Positions 1 to 7,256 of a stretch of DNA of 7,256 bases are shown one piece after another. Below the pieces are notes generated by a model that saw only the letters and a program-made list of their open reading frames with translations, was not told where the DNA came from and searched no databases. Location: IMG/VR virus record IMGVR_UViG_2778261657_000007, one strand, 5' to 3'. How positions within the stretch are numbered: position 1 is the stretch's first letter; each line of letters begins with the position of its first letter. This stretch comes from a virus (Duplodnaviria; Heunggongvirae; Uroviricota; Caudoviricetes). The position numbers and the translations under genes are program-made.

Positions 1-594
1 ATGCTTATTGGCTATGTCCGCGTATCAACAAATGACCAGAACACGGAATTGCAGCGTAACGCGCTGGAATGCGCGGGATGTGAGCGGATTTTTGAGGACA
101 AAATCAGCGGCACGAAGTCCGACAGGCCGGGACTGAAAAAACTGCTCAGGACATTATCGGAGGGGGATACACTGGTAGTCTGGAAGCTGGACCGGCTGGG
201 GCGTAGTATGCGGCATCTGGTCATTCTGGTTGAGGAACTGCGCGAACGTGGCATTAATTTTCGCAGCCTGACGGATGCTATTGATACCAGCACGCCGATG
301 GGGCGTTTTTTCTTTCATGTGATGGGTGCCCTGGCTGAAATGGAGCGAGAACTCATTGTCGAGCGGACACGCGCCGGACTGGAAGCGGCCAGAGCCAAAG
401 GTCGTATTGGTGGCAGACGTCCGAAACTCACCGCGAGTGAGTGGGAGCAGGTCGGACGGTTGCTGGCTGCGGGGGAATCTCGTCAACGCGTGGCGCTGAT
501 TTTTGATATTGGCCTGTCCACGCTCTATAAAAAATTCCCCTCATCAGCGACAAAGAATAAATTGTGTCATCCCTTAGCCAACCGGGACAAATAG
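1..594 (+). CDS. Serine DNA invertase (Hin/Gin/Pin/Cin family site-specific recombinase)
   Basis: 197-aa ORF beginning exactly at window position 1. N-terminus MLIGYVRVSTNDQ carries the resolvase/invertase catalytic serine (Ser9, codon 25-27), followed by conserved GDTLVVWKLDRLGRS and SLTDAIDTSTPMGRFFFHVMGALAEMERELIVERT blocks and a C-terminal helix-turn-helix (GESRQRVALIFDIGLSTLYKK). Length is typical of invertases (about 190 aa). Its own RBS, promoter and the flanking recombination site are upstream of the window and unseen. Confidence 0.93.
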   Translation: MLIGYVRVSTNDQNTELQRNALECAGCERIFEDKISGTKSDRPGLKKLLRTLSEGDTLVVWKLDRLGRSMRHLVILVEELRERGINFRSLTDAIDTSTPMGRFFFHVMGALAEMERELIVERTRAGLEAARAKGRIGGRRPKLTASEWEQVGRLLAAGESRQRVALIFDIGLSTLYKKFPSSATKNKLCHPLANRDK

Positions 595-653
595 CCTGAC
601 ATCTCCGGCACAACTGAAAATACCACTCACCCATTAACCACGGAGTTAAACGG
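560..653 (+). promoter_or_regulatory. Putative Ogr-dependent late promoter region for the FI-FII-E-T-U-D operon (position inferred, motif not confirmed)
   Basis: Only 59 bp separate the invertase stop (594) from the FI start (654), so any promoter for the tail operon must overlap the invertase 3' end. An A-rich -10-like stretch (GAAAATA, about 616-622) and an imperfect dyad TTGT(562-565)...ACAA(587-590) are present, but the canonical P2 late-promoter element TGT-N12-ACA is not found with exact spacing. Confidence 0.25.
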
Positions 654-1844
654 ATGAGTGACTATCATCACGGCGTGCAGGTGCTGGAGATTAACGACGG
701 CACCCGCGTCATTTCCACCGTATCCACTGCCATTGTCGGCATGGTCTGCACGGCCAGCGATGCGGATGCGGAAACCTTCCCCCTCAATAAACCGGTGCTG
801 ATTACCAATGTGCAGAGCGCAATTGCAAAGGCCGGTAAAAAAGGCACGCTGGCGGCATCGTTGCAGGCTATCGCCGACCAGTCAAAACCGGTCACCGTTG
901 TTGTGCGCGTGGAGGACGGCACCGGCGACGACGAGGAAACGAAACTCGCGCAGACCGTTTCCAATATCATCGGCACCACCGACGAAAACGGTCAGTACAC
1001 CGGACTGAAAGCCCTGCTGGCGGCGGAGTCGGTAACTGGTGTTAAACCGCGTATTCTCGGCGTGCCGGGACTGGACACCAAAGAGGTGGCTGTTGCACTG
1101 GCATCAGTCTGTCAGAAGCTGCGCGCTTTCGGGTATATCAGCGCATGGGGCTGTAAAACCATTTCCGAGGTGAAAGCTTACCGCCAGAATTTCAGCCAGC
1201 GTGAGCTGATGGTCATCTGGCCGGATTTCCTCGCATGGGATACGGTCACCAGTACCACCGCCACCGCGTATGCCACCGCCCGTGCGCTGGGTCTGCGTGC
1301 CAAAATCGACCAGGAGCAGGGCTGGCATAAAACGCTGTCCAACGTCGGGGTGAACGGTGTTACCGGCATCAGCGCCTCTGTATTCTGGGATTTGCAGGAG
1401 TCCGGCACCGATGCTGACCTGCTTAACGAGTCAGGCGTCACAACACTGATTCGCCGTGACGGTTTCCGCTTCTGGGGTAACCATACCTGCTCTGATGACC
1501 CGCTGTTCCTCTTTGAAAACTACACCCGCACCGCGCAGGTGCTGGCCGACACGATGGCTGAGGCGCACATGTGGGCGGTGGACAAGCCCATCACCGCAAC
1601 GCTGATTCGCGACATCGTTGACGGCATCAATGCCAAATTCCGTGAGCTGAAAACAAACGGCTATATCGTGGATGCGACCTGCTGGTTCAGCGAAGAATCC
1701 AACGATGCGGAAACCCTCAAGGCCGGAAAACTGTATATCGACTACGACTATACCCCGGTGCCTCCTCTCGAAAACCTGACCCTGCGCCAGCGTATTACCG
1801 ATAAATACCTGGCGAATCTGGTCACCTCGGTTAACAGCAATTAA
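654..1844 (+). CDS. FI: Contractile tail sheath protein (P2 gpFI-like)
   Basis: 396-aa ORF, the length of P2 gpFI; N-terminus MSDYHHGVQVLEINDGTRVISTVSTA is sheath-like; GGAG Shine-Dalgarno at 642-645, 8 nt before the ATG; first gene of the conserved FI-FII-E-T-U-D order. Confidence 0.93.
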   Translation: MSDYHHGVQVLEINDGTRVISTVSTAIVGMVCTASDADAETFPLNKPVLITNVQSAIAKAGKKGTLAASLQAIADQSKPVTVVVRVEDGTGDDEETKLAQTVSNIIGTTDENGQYTGLKALLAAESVTGVKPRILGVPGLDTKEVAVALASVCQKLRAFGYISAWGCKTISEVKAYRQNFSQRELMVIWPDFLAWDTVTSTTATAYATARALGLRAKIDQEQGWHKTLSNVGVNGVTGISASVFWDLQESGTDADLLNESGVTTLIRRDGFRFWGNHTCSDDPLFLFENYTRTAQVLADTMAEAHMWAVDKPITATLIRDIVDGINAKFRELKTNGYIVDATCWFSEESNDAETLKAGKLYIDYDYTPVPPLENLTLRQRITDKYLANLVTSVNSN

Positions 1845-1856
1845 GGAGCCTGACCG

Positions 1857-2375
1857 ATGGCAATGCCGCGCAAACTCAAGTTAATGAACGTCTTTCTGAA
1901 CGGCTACAGCTATCAGGGCGTCGCAAAGTCCGTCACGCTGCCAAAACTGACCCGTAAGCTCGAAAACTATCGCGGTGCGGGGATGAACGGCAGCGCCCCG
2001 GTAGACCTCGGCCTTGATGATGATGCGCTGTCAATGGAGTGGTCGCTCGGTGGCTTCCCGGATTCGGTTATCTGGGAACTTTACGCTGCAACTGGTGTGG
2101 ATGCCGTGCCGATTCGTTTTGCAGGCTCTTACCAGCGTGACGATACCGGCGAAACGGTGGCCGTTGAAGTGGTCATGCGTGGACGTCAGAAAGAAATCGA
2201 CACCGGTGAGGGTAAACAGGGAGAAGACACCGAGTCGAAAATCTCCGTGGTCTGCACCTATTTCCGGCTGACGATGGACGGTAAGGAGCTGGTCGAAATT
2301 GACACCATCAACATGATTGAGAAGGTGAACGGCGTCGACCGGCTGGAGCAACACCGCCGCAATATCGGCCTGTGA
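1857..2375 (+). CDS. FII: Tail tube protein (P2 gpFII-like)
   Basis: 172-aa ORF (P2 gpFII length) immediately after the sheath gene; strong SD AAGGAG at 1843-1848 overlapping the FI stop codon; N-terminus MAMPRKLKLMNVFLNGYSYQG typical of myovirus tube proteins. Confidence 0.92.
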   Translation: MAMPRKLKLMNVFLNGYSYQGVAKSVTLPKLTRKLENYRGAGMNGSAPVDLGLDDDALSMEWSLGGFPDSVIWELYAATGVDAVPIRFAGSYQRDDTGETVAVEVVMRGRQKEIDTGEGKQGEDTESKISVVCTYFRLTMDGKELVEIDTINMIEKVNGVDRLEQHRRNIGL

Positions 2376-2382
2376 TTTTCAT

Positions 2383-2403
2383 CCGGTCAGCCTGGCTGAC
2401 CGG
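2383..2403. repeat. Perfect inverted repeat (10-bp arms, 1-nt centre) in the FII-E intergenic region; candidate RNA stem-loop
   Basis: ccggtcagcc-t-ggctgaccgg read directly from the sequence, starting 8 nt after the FII stop. It is not followed by a U-run (next bases ttaaccctgattc), so it is not a canonical intrinsic terminator. Confidence 0.6.
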
Positions 2404-2431
2404 TTAACCCTGATTCAGAAGTGAGAAAACC

Positions 2432-2707
2432 ATGAACAAAGAAAATGTCATTACCCTGGACAATCCGGTCAAACGTGGTGAGCAGGTTATCGAACAGGTC
2501 ACGCTGATGAAACCCAATGCCGGGACGCTACGCGGTGTCAGTCTGGCTGCGGTCGCGAACTCCGAAGTCGATGCACTGATTAAGGTGCTGCCGCGCATGA
2601 CGGCACCGATGCTGACCGAGCAGGAGGTCGCCGCACTGGAACTGCCTGACCTTGTGGCGCTGGCCGGTAAGGTGGTCGGTTTTTTGTCGCCGAACTCGGT
2701 GCAGTGA
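2432..2707 (+). CDS. E: Tail assembly chaperone gpE (zero-frame product)
   Basis: 91-aa ORF (P2 gpE length) located between the tube and tape-measure genes, the conserved position of the tail chaperone; ends ...KVVGFLSPNSVQ with stop at 2705-2707; weak purine-rich SD (gtgagaaaa, 2421-2429). Confidence 0.88.
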   Translation: MNKENVITLDNPVKRGEQVIEQVTLMKPNAGTLRGVSLAAVANSEVDALIKVLPRMTAPMLTEQEVAALELPDLVALAGKVVGFLSPNSVQ

Positions 2708-2859
2708 CGTTTCCGAAAAATCTCTCGGTCGATGACCTGATGGCGGATGTGGCAGTGGTATTTCACTGGCCGCCATCAGAACTGTATCCCATGAGCCTGA
2801 CCGAACTCATCACATGGCGCGAAAAGGCGCTCAGGCGAAGCGGAAACACGAATGAGTAA
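2432..2859 (+). CDS. E+E': Tail assembly chaperone E+E' made by programmed -1 ribosomal frameshift (predicted 142 aa)
   Basis: Slippery heptamer T_TTT_TTG at 2680-2686 in the E frame. Manual translation of the -1 frame from 2686 gives an open frame, VAELGAVTFPKNLSVDDLMADVAVVFHWPPSELYPMSLTELITWREKALRRSGNTNE, stopping at TAA 2857-2859 and overlapping the T start. Predicted fusion is 85 + 57 = 142 aa, the size of P2 E+E'. Confidence 0.8.
2680..2686 (+). promoter_or_regulatory. -1 frameshift slippery site (TTTTTTG) for E/E' recoding
   Basis: Heptamer of the X_XXY_YYZ form in the E reading frame (codons TTT 2681-2683, TTG 2684-2686); the same heptamer is used in the P2 FETUD operon. Confidence 0.75.
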
Positions 2860-5299
2860 CAATGTAAAATTACAGGTATTGCTCAGGGCTGTTGACCAGG
2901 CATCCCGCCCGTTTAAATCCATCCGCACAGCGAGTAAGTCGCTGTCGGGGGATATCCGGGAAACACAAAAATCACTGCGCGAGCTGAACGGTCAGGCATC
3001 CCGTATTGAGGGATTCCGCAAGACCAGTGCACAGCTTGCCGTGACTGGTCATGCACTTGAAAAGGCACGGCAGGAGGCCGAAGCCCTTGCCACACAGTTT
3101 AAAAACACTGAACGTCCGACCCGTGCTCAGGCGAAAGTGCTGGAATCCGCAAAGCGTGCGGCGGAGGACTTACAGGCGAAATATAACCGCCTGACGGATT
3201 CCGTTAAACGCCAGCAGCGGGAACTGGCCGTTGTGGGAATTAATACCCGCAATCTTGCACATGATGAGCAGGGACTGAAAAACCGTATCAGTGAAACCAC
3301 CGCACAGCTTAACCGTCAGCGTGACGCGCTGGCGCGTGTCAGTGCGCAACAGGCAAAACTTAACGCAGTAAAACAGCGTTATCAGGCAGGCAAGGAACTG
3401 GCCGGAAATATGGCCTCAGTGGGTGCTGCCGGTGTGGGGATTGCGGCGGCGGGAACGATGGCCGGAGTTAAGTTGCTGATGCCCGGTTATGAGTTTGCGC
3501 AGAAAAACTCAGAATTGCAGGCCGTGCTCGGAGTGGCAAAAGACTCCGCCGAAATGACCGCACTACGCAAACAGGCGCGCCAGCTCGGCGACAATACCGC
3601 CGCCTCGGCGGATGATGCGGCCGGTGCACAGATAATCATCGCGAAAGCGGGTGGGGATGTTGATGCCATTCAGGCGGCAACGCCGGTCACGCTGAATATG
3701 GCGCTGGCGAACCGCCGCACGATGGAAGAAAACGCCGCCCTGCTGATGGGGATGAAATCCGCCTTTCAGCTTTCAAACGATAAGGTCGCTCATATCGGGG
3801 ATGTTCTCTCCATGACGATGAACAAAACCGCCGCCGATTTTGACGGCATGAGCGATGCGCTGACCTATGCCGCACCTGTGGCAAAAAATGCCGGTGTCAG
3901 CATTGAAGAAACCGCCGCAATGGTCGGGGCGCTGCATGATGCAAAAATCACAGGCTCAATGGCGGGGACGGGAAGCCGTGCCGTGTTAAGCCGCCTGCAG
4001 GCACCGACGGGAAAAGCATGGGATGCACTTAAAGAGCTTGGAGTGAAAACCTCAGACAGCAAGGGAAACACCCGACCAGTATTTACCATTCTGAAAGAAA
4101 TGCAGGCCAGTTTTGAGAAAAACCGGCTCGGTACTGCCCAGCAGGCTGAATACATGAAAACTATTTTCGGGGAGGAGGCCAGCTCAGCCGCCGCCGTGCT
4201 GATGACTGCCGCCTCAACCGGAAAGCTGGACAAACTGACCGCTGCGTTTAAAGCCTCAGACGGAAAGACCGCAGAGCTGGTAAATATCATGCAGGACAAT
4301 CTCGGCGGTGACTTTAAGGAGTTTCAGTCCGCTTATGAGGCGGTGGGGACTGACCTGTTTGACCAGCAGGAAGGCGCGCTGCATAAGCTCACGCAGACGG
4401 CCACAAAGTATGTGCTAAAACTCGACGGCTGGATCAAGAAAAACAAATCACTGGCGTCAACCATCGGCATCATTGCCGGTGGCGCGCTGGCGCTGACTGG
4501 CATCATCGGTGCAATTGGTCTTGTAGCCTGGCCGGTTATCACCGGCATCAATGCCATCATCGCGGCAGCAGGCGCAATGGGGGCAGTCTTCACGACGGTT
4601 GGCAGTGCTGTTATGACCGCCATCGGGGCTATTAGCTGGCCGGTTGTGGCCGTGGTGGCCGCAATTGTCGCCGGGGCGTTGCTTATCCGTAAATACTGGG
4701 AGCCTGTCAGCGCATTCTTTGGCGGTGTGGTTGAAGGGCTGAAAGTGGCATTTGCGCCGGTGGGGGAACTGTTCACGCCACTTAAGCCGGTGTTTGACTG
4801 GCTGGGTGAAAAGTTACAGGCCGCGTGGCAGTGGTTTAAAAACCTGATTGCCCCGGTTAAAGCCACACAGGACACCCTGAACCGTTGCCGTGACACGGGG
4901 GTCATGTTCGGGCAGGCACTGGCTGACGCGCTGATGCTGCCGCTTAATACGTTCAACAAACTGCGCAGCGGTATTGACTGGGTACTGGAAAAACTCGGTG
5001 TTATCAACAAAGAGTCAGACACACTTGACCAGACCGCCGCCAGAACTCATGCCGCCACGTATGGCACCGGTGGTTATATTCCGGCGACCAGCTCTTATGC
5101 AGGTTATCAGGCTTATCAGCCGGTTACGGCACCGGCTGGCCGCTCTTATGTAGACCAGAGTAAAAACGAATATCACATCAGCCTGACGGGTGGTACTGCG
5201 CCGGGGACACAGCTTGACCGCCAGTTACAGGATGCGCTCGAAAAATACGAGCGGGATAAACGTGCGCGCGCCCGTGCCAGCATGATGCATGACGGTTAA
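2852..5299 (+). CDS. T: Tail tape measure protein (P2 gpT-like)
   Basis: 815-aa ORF (P2 gpT length) directly after the chaperone pair; N-terminal roughly 180 aa are rich in Q/R/K/E/A/L (coiled-coil-like); internal Gly/Ala/Ile-rich hydrophobic block (about 4455-4690); start overlaps the E' stop. Confidence 0.93.
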   Translation: MSNNVKLQVLLRAVDQASRPFKSIRTASKSLSGDIRETQKSLRELNGQASRIEGFRKTSAQLAVTGHALEKARQEAEALATQFKNTERPTRAQAKVLESAKRAAEDLQAKYNRLTDSVKRQQRELAVVGINTRNLAHDEQGLKNRISETTAQLNRQRDALARVSAQQAKLNAVKQRYQAGKELAGNMASVGAAGVGIAAAGTMAGVKLLMPGYEFAQKNSELQAVLGVAKDSAEMTALRKQARQLGDNTAASADDAAGAQIIIAKAGGDVDAIQAATPVTLNMALANRRTMEENAALLMGMKSAFQLSNDKVAHIGDVLSMTMNKTAADFDGMSDALTYAAPVAKNAGVSIEETAAMVGALHDAKITGSMAGTGSRAVLSRLQAPTGKAWDALKELGVKTSDSKGNTRPVFTILKEMQASFEKNRLGTAQQAEYMKTIFGEEASSAAAVLMTAASTGKLDKLTAAFKASDGKTAELVNIMQDNLGGDFKEFQSAYEAVGTDLFDQQEGALHKLTQTATKYVLKLDGWIKKNKSLASTIGIIAGGALALTGIIGAIGLVAWPVITGINAIIAAAGAMGAVFTTVGSAVMTAIGAISWPVVAVVAAIVAGALLIRKYWEPVSAFFGGVVEGLKVAFAPVGELFTPLKPVFDWLGEKLQAAWQWFKNLIAPVKATQDTLNRCRDTGVMFGQALADALMLPLNTFNKLRSGIDWVLEKLGVINKESDTLDQTAARTHAATYGTGGYIPATSSYAGYQAYQPVTAPAGRSYVDQSKNEYHISLTGGTAPGTQLDRQLQDALEKYERDKRARARASMMHDG

Positions 5300-5313
5300 G
5301 GAGGTGACGAAAA

Positions 5314-5793
5314 ATGATGCTCGCGTTAGGTATGTTTGTTTTTATGCGCCAGACGCTGCCACACCAGACCATGCAGCGTGAATCAGATTATCGCTGGCCG
5401 TCAAATTCCCGTATCGGTAAACGGGATGCCTACCAGTTTCTCGGTGTTGGCGAGGAAAACATGACGCTTGCCGGTGTGCTTTATCCCGAACTGACCGGCG
5501 GCAAGCTGACGATGACCACGCTCAGGATGATGGCTGAGGAAGGCCGGGCGTGGCCGTTGCTGGATGGCACCGGCATGATTTACGGCATGTATGTCATCAG
5601 CAGGGTGAGTGAAACAGGGAGTATTTTCTTTGCAGACGGCACACCCCGGAAAATTGATTTTACGCTGTCGCTCACCCGCGTTGATGAATCACTGGCCGCG
5701 CTTTATGGCGATATCGGTAAACAGGCGGAATCGCTCATCGGTAAGGCTGGCAGTATGGCGACCAGATTCACGGGTATGACGGGGGCGGGATAA
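5314..5793 (+). CDS. U: Tail protein gpU (P2 GpU family)
   Basis: 159-aa ORF (P2 gpU length) in the conserved position after T; strong SD AAGGAGGTGA at 5298-5307; tandem ATG at 5314 and 5317 (5314 taken). Confidence 0.88.
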   Translation: MMLALGMFVFMRQTLPHQTMQRESDYRWPSNSRIGKRDAYQFLGVGEENMTLAGVLYPELTGGKLTMTTLRMMAEEGRAWPLLDGTGMIYGMYVISRVSETGSIFFADGTPRKIDFTLSLTRVDESLAALYGDIGKQAESLIGKAGSMATRFTGMTGAG

Positions 5794-6956
5794 TGCTGGA
5801 TGCGCTGACATTTGATGCAGGCAGTACGCTGACGCCGGATTACATGCTGATGCTCGACAGCAGGGATATTACCGGCAATATCAGCGACCGTCTGATGAGC
5901 ATGACCCTGACCGATAACCGGGGCTTTGAGGCTGACCAGCTTGATATTGAACTGAACGATGCCGACGGGCAGGTCGAGCTGCCGATTCGTGGCGCTGTCC
6001 TGACGGTGTATATCGGCTGGAAAGGTTTTGCCCTGGTATGCAAAGGGAAATTTACCGTTGATGAGGTTGAACACAGGGGCGCGCCGGATGTGGTCACCAT
6101 CCGCGCCCGGAGTGCAGATTTTCGCGGGACGCTCAATTCCCGCCGGGAAGGCTCATGGCATGACACCACGCTCGGTGCGATTGTTGAGGCGATAGCCTCC
6201 CGTAACAGGCTGGAAGCCAGTGTCGCGCCGTCACTGGCCGGAATTAAAATCCCGCACATCGACCAGTCGCAGGAGTCTGATGCGAAATTCCTGACCCGTC
6301 TTGCAGAACGCAACGGCGGTGAGGTGTCGGTAAAAATGGGAAAACTGTTGTTTCTCAAAGCGGGGCAGGGGGTGACGGCCAGCGGTAAAAAAATCCCGCA
6401 GGTCACCATCACCCGCAGTGACGGCGACCGCCATCATTTTGCGATTGCTGACCGTGGAGCCTATACCGGCGTAACGGCAAAGTGGTTACACACCAAAGAC
6501 CCGAAGCCGCAAAAGCAGAAGGTAAAACTGAAACGCAAAAAGAAAGAGAAACACCTGCGCGCACTGGAGCACCCGAAAGCGAAACCAGTCACGCAGAAGA
6601 AAGCGCCAAAAGTACCGGAAGCGCGCGAAGGTGAATACATGGCCGGTGAGGCTGACAACGTTTTTGCACTGACCACGGTATATGCCACGAAAGCACAGGC
6701 CATGCGCGCCGCTCAGGCGAAGTGGGATAAACTGCAACGGGGTGTGGCGGAGTTCTCCATCAGCCTGGCTACCGGTCGGGCAGATATTTACACGGAAACA
6801 CCGGTTAAAGTGTCAGGCTTTAAGCGCGTCATAGACGAGCAGGACTGGACAATCACTAAGGTGACACATTTTCTGAATAATAGCGGCTTCACGACGTCCT
6901 TGGAGCTTGAGGTCAGGCTTTCTGATGTGGAGTACGAAACAGAAGATGATGAGTGA
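5793..6956 (+). CDS. D: Baseplate hub / late control gene D protein (P2 gpD-like)
   Basis: 387-aa ORF (P2 gpD length); start overlaps the U stop in TAATG (5791-5795), indicating translational coupling; last gene of the FETUD operon; carries an internal Lys-rich segment. Confidence 0.88.
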   Translation: MLDALTFDAGSTLTPDYMLMLDSRDITGNISDRLMSMTLTDNRGFEADQLDIELNDADGQVELPIRGAVLTVYIGWKGFALVCKGKFTVDEVEHRGAPDVVTIRARSADFRGTLNSRREGSWHDTTLGAIVEAIASRNRLEASVAPSLAGIKIPHIDQSQESDAKFLTRLAERNGGEVSVKMGKLLFLKAGQGVTASGKKIPQVTITRSDGDRHHFAIADRGAYTGVTAKWLHTKDPKPQKQKVKLKRKKKEKHLRALEHPKAKPVTQKKAPKVPEAREGEYMAGEADNVFALTTVYATKAQAMRAAQAKWDKLQRGVAEFSISLATGRADIYTETPVKVSGFKRVIDEQDWTITKVTHFLNNSGFTTSLELEVRLSDVEYETEDDE

Positions 6957-6974
6957 TGTTTTTATTTTATCTAT

Positions 6975-7003
6975 TTGTTTTATAAGGATAAATTAACTAA
7001 AAT
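6975..7003 (+). promoter_or_regulatory. Putative sigma-70 promoter for ogr (-35 TTGTTT 6975-6980, 17-bp spacer, -10 TAAAAT 6998-7003)
   Basis: Hexamers read directly from the sequence within an AT-rich island (6957-7010) between the D stop and the ogr start. Spacing is canonical and would give a 5' UTR of roughly 25-30 nt containing the ogr SD. Confidence 0.4.
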
Positions 7004-7037
7004 GGCACCATCAACAAAACCGGAAGAGGTGCTCGCG

Positions 7038-7256
7038 ATGTTTCATTGTCCTTTATGCCAGCATGCCGCACATGCGCGTACAAGCCGCTATATCACTGAC
7101 ACGACAAAAGAGCGTTATCACCAGTGTCAGAACGTGAATTGCAGCGCCACGTTCATCACTTATGAGTCGGTACAGCGATACATCGTGAAGCCGGGAGAAG
7201 TCCACGCCGTAAGACCGCACCCGTTGCCGTCAGGGCAGCAAATTATGTGGATGTAA
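7038..7256 (+). CDS. ogr: Late gene transcriptional activator Ogr (Ogr/Delta zinc-finger family)
   Basis: 72-aa product MFHCPLCQHAAHARTSRYITDTTKERYHQCQNVNC... with Cys4-X2-Cys7-X22-Cys30-X4-Cys35, the Ogr/Delta Cys4 zinc-binding arrangement. SD GGAAGAGGTG at 7022-7031. The six-frame ORF begins at 6975, but that extension lacks an RBS and overlaps the AT-rich promoter region, so the internal ATG at 7038 is taken as the start. Confidence 0.88.
   Translation: MFHCPLCQHAAHARTSRYITDTTKERYHQCQNVNCSATFITYESVQRYIVKPGEVHAVRPHPLPSGQQIMWM

Follow-up and report, generated by a model that had tools for sequence, protein, structure and literature searches.

Tail-fibre switches driven by Pin/Gin-type DNA invertases are already known, including from P2-like prophages, and they are common and ordinary. 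In the e14 prophage of E. coli K-12, the Pin/P segment (stfP-tfaP, tfaE-stfE, pinE) has the order of fibre C-terminus and chaperone, inverted chaperone and C-terminus, and invertase, and this order is shared by the locus studied here. In phage Mu, the 5' end of gin lies beside gixR, and the spacer and the site are collinear with our locus, although the Mu G segment is about 3 kb, its S/U and S'/U' genes are of another type and Mu is a transposable phage. In P1, it is the 3' end of cin and not the 5' end that lies beside cixL, and the C segment is 4.2 kb. The hin gene is situated within its own invertible segment.

Several described loci join such a switch to a P2-like tail operon. In EPEC E2348/69, both orientations co-exist in single-colony cultures at two P2-like prophage loci (Goldberg et al. 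2014, PMC4272514, Table S1). The EPEC locus at 2,977,580-2,979,467 likewise has the cassettes, the invertase and then FI, FII and E. Its right crossover site is identical to that found here and its invertase is 80% identical, but the prophage is truncated and carries another invertase allele. A second P2-like prophage of the same strain (NC_011601 1888500-1896500), with an invertase 79% identical to ours, has a three-repeat, shufflon-like fibre switch (Goldberg et al., PMC4272514); the tail genes after this invertase are on the opposite strand, which makes it another P2-like lineage. Salmonella Fels-2 also has a tail-fibre inversion beside a pin homologue (fin/pin), according to its published description (PMC7953296). 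In the Peduovirus phages pro483, S164 and 'P2' of E. coli O157:H43 T22, the junction between invertase and FI is 95-96% identical in nucleotides to ours, and the gene is annotated as 'DNA invertase'. The order H / tfa / tfa' / fibre fragment / invertase / FI and the sites of pro483 are as here, but all three phages carry other cassette alleles, with partial similarity to the segment described below. The same invertase-FI junction occurs in about 575 of 5426 complete E. coli genomes, the set from which all genome counts below were taken.

We conclude, with a probability of about 0.9, that the invertase gene studied here encodes the recombinase of a Pin/Gin-type tail-fibre phase-variation switch in a P2-like (Peduovirus) prophage. 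The window, that is, the whole stretch of 7,256 nucleotides that was analysed, begins with this gene (Table 1). Ten places with the exact invertase protein were fetched from a public assembly collection, and the region upstream was read from contig L011 (GCA_040340845.1), not from the window's own upstream sequence; L011 and the window are 100% identical over all 6594 shared nucleotides (6.6 kb), which makes L011 the probable source contig or a clonal copy, and window position 1 corresponds to L011 6001.

Table 1. Features of the window and of the adjoining upstream region of contig L011. Positions are those of the window unless stated otherwise.
Feature	Position	Strand or orientation	Basis or remark
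Left crossover site, TTCTCGCATACCTTGGTTTGGGAGAA	1925-1950 nt upstream of window position 1 (L011 4051-4076)		26-mer in tail-fibre gene H
Sv(Collar)-tfa cassette	within 1895-bp segment between the sites	+	Collar-domain C-terminus of H, then 200-aa Caudo_TAP chaperone
tfa'-Sv'(gp53-like) cassette	within 1895-bp segment between the sites	-	150-aa Caudo_TAP chaperone and gp53-like C-terminal fragment
Right crossover site, TTCTCCCAAACCAACGTTTAAGAAAA	56-81 nt upstream of window position 1 (L011 5920-5945)	inverted relative to left site	pix-type 26-mer
DNA invertase gene (Pin/Gin/Cin-type small serine recombinase, 197 aa, nucleophile Ser9)	1-594	+	Pfam, identity, structure match
Probable recombinational enhancer (sis), in invertase coding region	19-90		homology to annotated P1 cin enhancer
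Candidate 15-bp Fis cores (G-N13-C)	22-36 and 71-85		our own reading of the alignment
P2 pF late-promoter activator (Ogr) binding site, by homology	557-585	+	P2 record, site 17555-17583
Tail sheath gene FI, first of F operon	654-1844	+	Phage_sheath_1, Phage_sheath_1C, Gp18_domIII_N; 97% nucleotide identity to P2 FI
Tail tube gene FII	1857-2375	+	Pfam
E	2432-2707	+	Pfam; E' extension 2704-2859
Tape measure gene T	2852-5299	+	Pfam
U	5314-5793	+	Pfam
D	5793-6956	+	Pfam
Ogr/Delta zinc-finger gene (ogr)	window end	+	Pfam

All genes of the window are on one strand. The pF promoter is followed by FI, FII, E/E', T, U, D and ogr in the P2 order, and window 574-7002 is 97.2% identical in nucleotides to phage P2 17572-24000. 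Judged from this sequence comparison, the window is the F-operon half of a P2-like (Peduovirus) prophage. The start of the P2 F operon (17626-17628) corresponds to window 628-630. The E and E+E' pair of P2 is also conserved (2432-2859), and the -1 frameshift site annotated in P2 at 19685 corresponds to about window 2687, with the E' frame at 2704-2859. At the end of the window, a mechanically called ORF (TTG at 6975, 93 aa; 6975-7256) over-extends ogr; RefSeq places ogrK of the near-identical L001 at the equivalent of window 7038-7256 (72 aa, MFHCPLCQH...).

P2 itself has a non-switching H (669 aa), G, a terminator and fun(Z) on the opposite strand, followed by pF and FI, and it lacks an invertase. 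Here the nucleotide homology to P2 is interrupted: it is lost close to the end of gene I (L011 3065) and picks up again at the pF site (window ~574), so the H-G-fun(Z) block has been replaced by another H and an e14-like invertible module. The H protein encoded here is no more than 42-43% identical to P2 H, over its N-terminal and central parts. A preliminary description of the window had placed the invertase directly upstream of the tail sheath gene, and its ORF indeed ends 60 nt before FI. The same description located Z/fun of P2 between G and FI, in agreement with the P2 annotation, and proposed different cargo in this known variable slot. The slot does differ from that of P2, but the replacement is larger than proposed and covers the whole H-G-fun(Z) block. 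The activator site marks where the module meets the P2 backbone on the right; here P2 homology begins at about 562 and is perfect from 574. By our own count, 19 of the 29 positions of the activator site are identical to P2, and its left half differs. The invertase stop codon (592-594) lies inside the P2 pF late promoter region, and the activator site overlaps the last 13 codons. Because these codons are P2 promoter DNA, the invertase is longer than PinE, Cin and Gin (by 13 residues in the case of e14 PinE) and is unrelated to them after residue ~182. There is no terminator between the invertase and FI, and invertase transcripts could therefore read into the tail operon.

Upstream of the invertase, the strongest inverted repeat in 3.7 kb is a 27-nt pair (L011 4051-4077 and 5919-5945). 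It corresponds to two inverted, imperfectly palindromic 26-bp sites with matching cores, which read TTCTCGCATACC-TT-GGTTTGGGAGAA and TTCTCCCAAACC-AA-CGTTTAAGAAAA when the cores are split out. The TT and AA of the cores are complementary, and the inner half-sites match exactly. The left site falls at the H codons for LAYLGLGE. The right site differs by 1 nt from the site before e14 pinE, which is equally far from its gene, and it is collinear with Mu gixR at an equal distance to the start codon. Eleven further loci were inspected, and 10 of them had this pair at the equivalent position, with the right site always 55 nt from the ATG. L008 and L009 carry single-base variants in both sites (4051-4076, 5920-5945; TTCTTGCATACC... 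and TTCTCCTAAACC...), so their inner half-sites are no longer identical to each other. A search for crossover-like sites (WAACCNNSGTTW, 1 mismatch) across the window found none in 1-594 and seven elsewhere, a number near chance, and the switch therefore lies outside the window. The preliminary description had predicted this position, with the crossover site and the switch region directly upstream, and had suggested looking there for inverted 26-bp sites flanking alternative fibre and assembly genes; L011 has both. Its statement that the invertase gene abuts one boundary of the segment applies to Gin and Pin (at the 5' end, as here) and to Cin (at the 3' end), but not to hin.

The two cassettes between the sites are convergent, and each consists of a fibre C-terminus and an assembly chaperone. 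A Pfam search of the constant part and the cassettes found Phage_tail_fib and Collar, Caudo_TAP, Caudo_TAP, and Gp53-like_C. The gp53-like C-terminal fragment on the minus strand lacks a start of its own. As assembled in L011, H is a protein of 445 aa with the Collar domain, followed by the 200-aa Caudo_TAP protein. When L011 4063-5933 was inverted in silico, both sites were unchanged, and H residues 1-279 were joined in frame to ...AAKRNVGTGANQIPDM..., giving an H of 395 aa with Gp53-like_C, followed by the 150-aa Caudo_TAP chaperone. Thus, a constant fibre N-terminus lies outside the segment, and the alternative C-termini are in frame with it and have their own chaperones. Unlike e14, which is a lambdoid remnant, the present element is a P2-type myovirus, its constant part is a P2-family H with a Phage_tail_fib N-terminus, and its second cassette is gp53-like.

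The inverted arrangement is found in nature. L006 encodes an identical invertase protein and has the L011 segment in reverse orientation, at 98.8% identity, with both ends of the alignment falling within the crossover sites. The H protein predicted by in-silico inversion is 96% identical to the actual H of L006 and of equal length. Among the complete E. coli genomes, 6 have the gp53-like cassette fused to the constant part of H and 9 have it silent beside the invertase; for the Collar cassette, fusion to H occurs in 224 and a position beside an invertase in 662, and these 662 junctions probably include e14. Both states are common in nature, since both cassettes are found H-fused and invertase-adjacent in complete genomes. 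The reversed segment with its breakpoints in the sites, together with both types of junction, indicates that the segment actually inverts. The strain-to-strain differences in orientation show past inversion, and not current activity in the source strain. The earlier proposal that the segment switches alternative tail-fibre C-termini is thus supported by in-frame fusions both ways and by both orientations in natural isolates. We also considered a strong orientation bias (224 versus 6) with orientation-dependent expression of the invertase, and rejected it: the gp53-like cassette is about balanced, and the apparent bias results from cassette diversity.

One assembly lacks the segment. In L010 (CP063956.1, GCA_017355085.1), the flanks are 100% identical to those of L011, and 5833-5932 is exactly 100 N between the outer half-sites, ...TTCTCGCATACC[N100]CGTTTAAGAAAA..., which stands in for the whole segment, 69-1937 nt before the first base of the window. 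Since this is an assembly gap of 100 N, loss of the segment by natural deletion was rejected. An assembler or scaffolder would leave such a gap if the orientation of the segment were ambiguous, as in a culture with both orientations; other causes are possible, and the gap is suggestive only. In the public assembly collection, 370 blocks list the exact invertase protein, and contigs of 5-10 kb make up more than their share of them (95 of 370), as would be expected if short-read assemblies often broke at the invertible segment beside the invertase.

It is conceivable that the invertase mainly serves the host: it would recombine, in trans, the pix-type sites of e14 and other prophages and so generate chimeric fibre-like proteins by which other phages are kept from adsorbing. 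Gin, Cin, Pin and Hin complement one another, and besides the near-identity of the crossover site to that of e14, the Collar cassette and its chaperone share 90-95% DNA identity with e14 stfE-tfaE. A precedent is PinQ, which acts in trans to invert the P segment of e14 and prevents adsorption of T2, and a block by a chimeric fibre has been reported for PinQ/StfE2 (PMC12529663). However, the gene has a complete switch of its own next to it, in a P2-type late region that appears intact, and this arrangement gives a full account of it. In addition, H of P2 belongs to the Ogr-dependent late operon V, and H would therefore be expected to be silent in a lysogen. A main role of this kind is highly improbable in our estimation. 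The invertase might instead, in addition to flipping its own segment, recombine in trans the near-identical pix-type sites that e14 or other prophages in the cell carry, leading to a recombinase-triggered adsorption block like that of PinQ/StfE2, and the StfE-like Collar cassette could yield the same kind of receptor-masking protein as StfE2. This idea of defence by trans action, for which the similarity of the sites and of one cassette speaks, we regard as improbable.

The invertase ORF runs from an ATG start to a TAG stop. It is complete, because its first codon lines up with those of Cin, Gin and PinE; the window thus begins at the invertase ATG, as had been described. In the N-terminus MLIGYVRVS, Ser9 is at the nucleophile position, aligned with Gin, Cin and PinE. 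A Pfam search found a Resolvase N-terminal domain at residues 3-135 (E 8e-53) and a resolvase HTH_7 domain at residues 138-181 (E 5e-13), so that the protein has the catalytic domain, serine nucleophile and C-terminal HTH of a small serine recombinase. No NCBIfam model was passed by the protein, and all matches were far under the cut-off. In alignments with the annotated genes, protein identity is 86% to e14 PinE, 78% to P1 Cin and 77% to Mu Gin, and every residue that is invariant among the three is kept. Window 1-594 is an intact Pin/Gin-type invertase gene of a P2-like prophage.

The gene might still be an orphan or a decayed remnant that drives no switch in the prophage. The window alone contains no sites, the C-terminus is unlike those of Pin, Gin and Cin in that the ORF runs into P2 promoter DNA, and no obvious promoter of the invertase was found: a search for a sigma-70-like promoter gave nothing above shuffled controls in L011 (the 55-nt spacer and nearby) or in the flipped L006. 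Yet the identical L011 has the two sites and the two cassettes intact and in frame, the same segment is seen in both orientations and, besides the intact ORF with its conserved residues, the recurrence of the exact protein throughout the collection speaks against decay. The altered tail starts only past the region aligned with the Gin structure. We consider it extremely unlikely that the gene is an orphan.

The top solved-structure match of the invertase is Mu Gin (3UJ3, 4M6F; E 1e-94), with residues 1-182 aligned. Residues K47, K/R48, K/R51, Q151, R154 and L155 of Hin contact Fis and the enhancer, and they are found in Fis/enhancer-dependent invertases but not in resolvases (McLean et al., PMC3798978). 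The alignment revealed that the equivalents are all present in our invertase (K46, K47, R50, Q150, R153 and L154). A resolvase of the Tn3 or gamma-delta type, left by a transposon or plasmid remnant and resolving direct repeats instead of inverting, would suit the name of the Pfam family and the matches to gamma-delta and Tn3 resolvase structures (E 1e-28 to 1e-34, with 1e-34 for gamma-delta), but its likelihood is negligible, as these matches are about 60 orders of magnitude below Gin, the invertase-specific contact residues are present, the sites are inverted and not direct, and no transposase or res-like array is nearby.

The beginning of the invertase gene probably contains an enhancer. 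The P1 record annotates an "enhancer of Cin-mediated C-segment inversion" at cin nt 19-90, which aligns to window 19-90. Window 1-120 was aligned gap-free to cin, gin and pinE, and positions 22-35 were invariant. Among 11 invertase genes, synonymous-codon identity is 0.81 in codons 8-12, 0.545 in codons 7-30 and 0.414 in codons 31-135, and among 8-codon windows conservation is highest in those that start at codons 2-10 and next highest in those that start at codons 23-24 and 34. The centres of the two candidate Fis cores are 49 bp apart, compared with 47 bp in the hin enhancer (PMC3798978). The second core has a G+C-rich centre, and its synonymous conservation (0.58) is modestly over background. 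Fis sites at about 22-36 and 71-85 would constrain the DNA in a way that fits the synonymous conservation, with a constraint on translation at the 5' end as a confounder. An enhancer within the first ~90 nt of the gene is therefore probable, with presumed Fis binding and a weak second site.

In this reading, invertase dimers would bind the two inverted 26-bp sites, one in H and the other upstream of the ATG, and host Fis, on which the reaction presumably depends, would bind the enhancer to form the invertasome. The invertasome would then flip the 1.9-kb segment between the sites. In each orientation, the constant N-terminal 279 residues of H are joined in frame to a Collar-type or a gp53-like receptor-binding C-terminus, with the matching chaperone behind. 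Progeny phage would thus have either of two kinds of fibre and presumably differ in host range.

The switch is of little importance beyond annotation. It accounts for the differences among P2-like E. coli prophages in the H-G-Z/fun region, and for the tendency of short-read assemblies to break or leave gaps at the segment. A fibre gene read from one assembly would represent one of two receptor specificities, which may matter for predicting the host range of P2-like phages and of tailocins derived from them.
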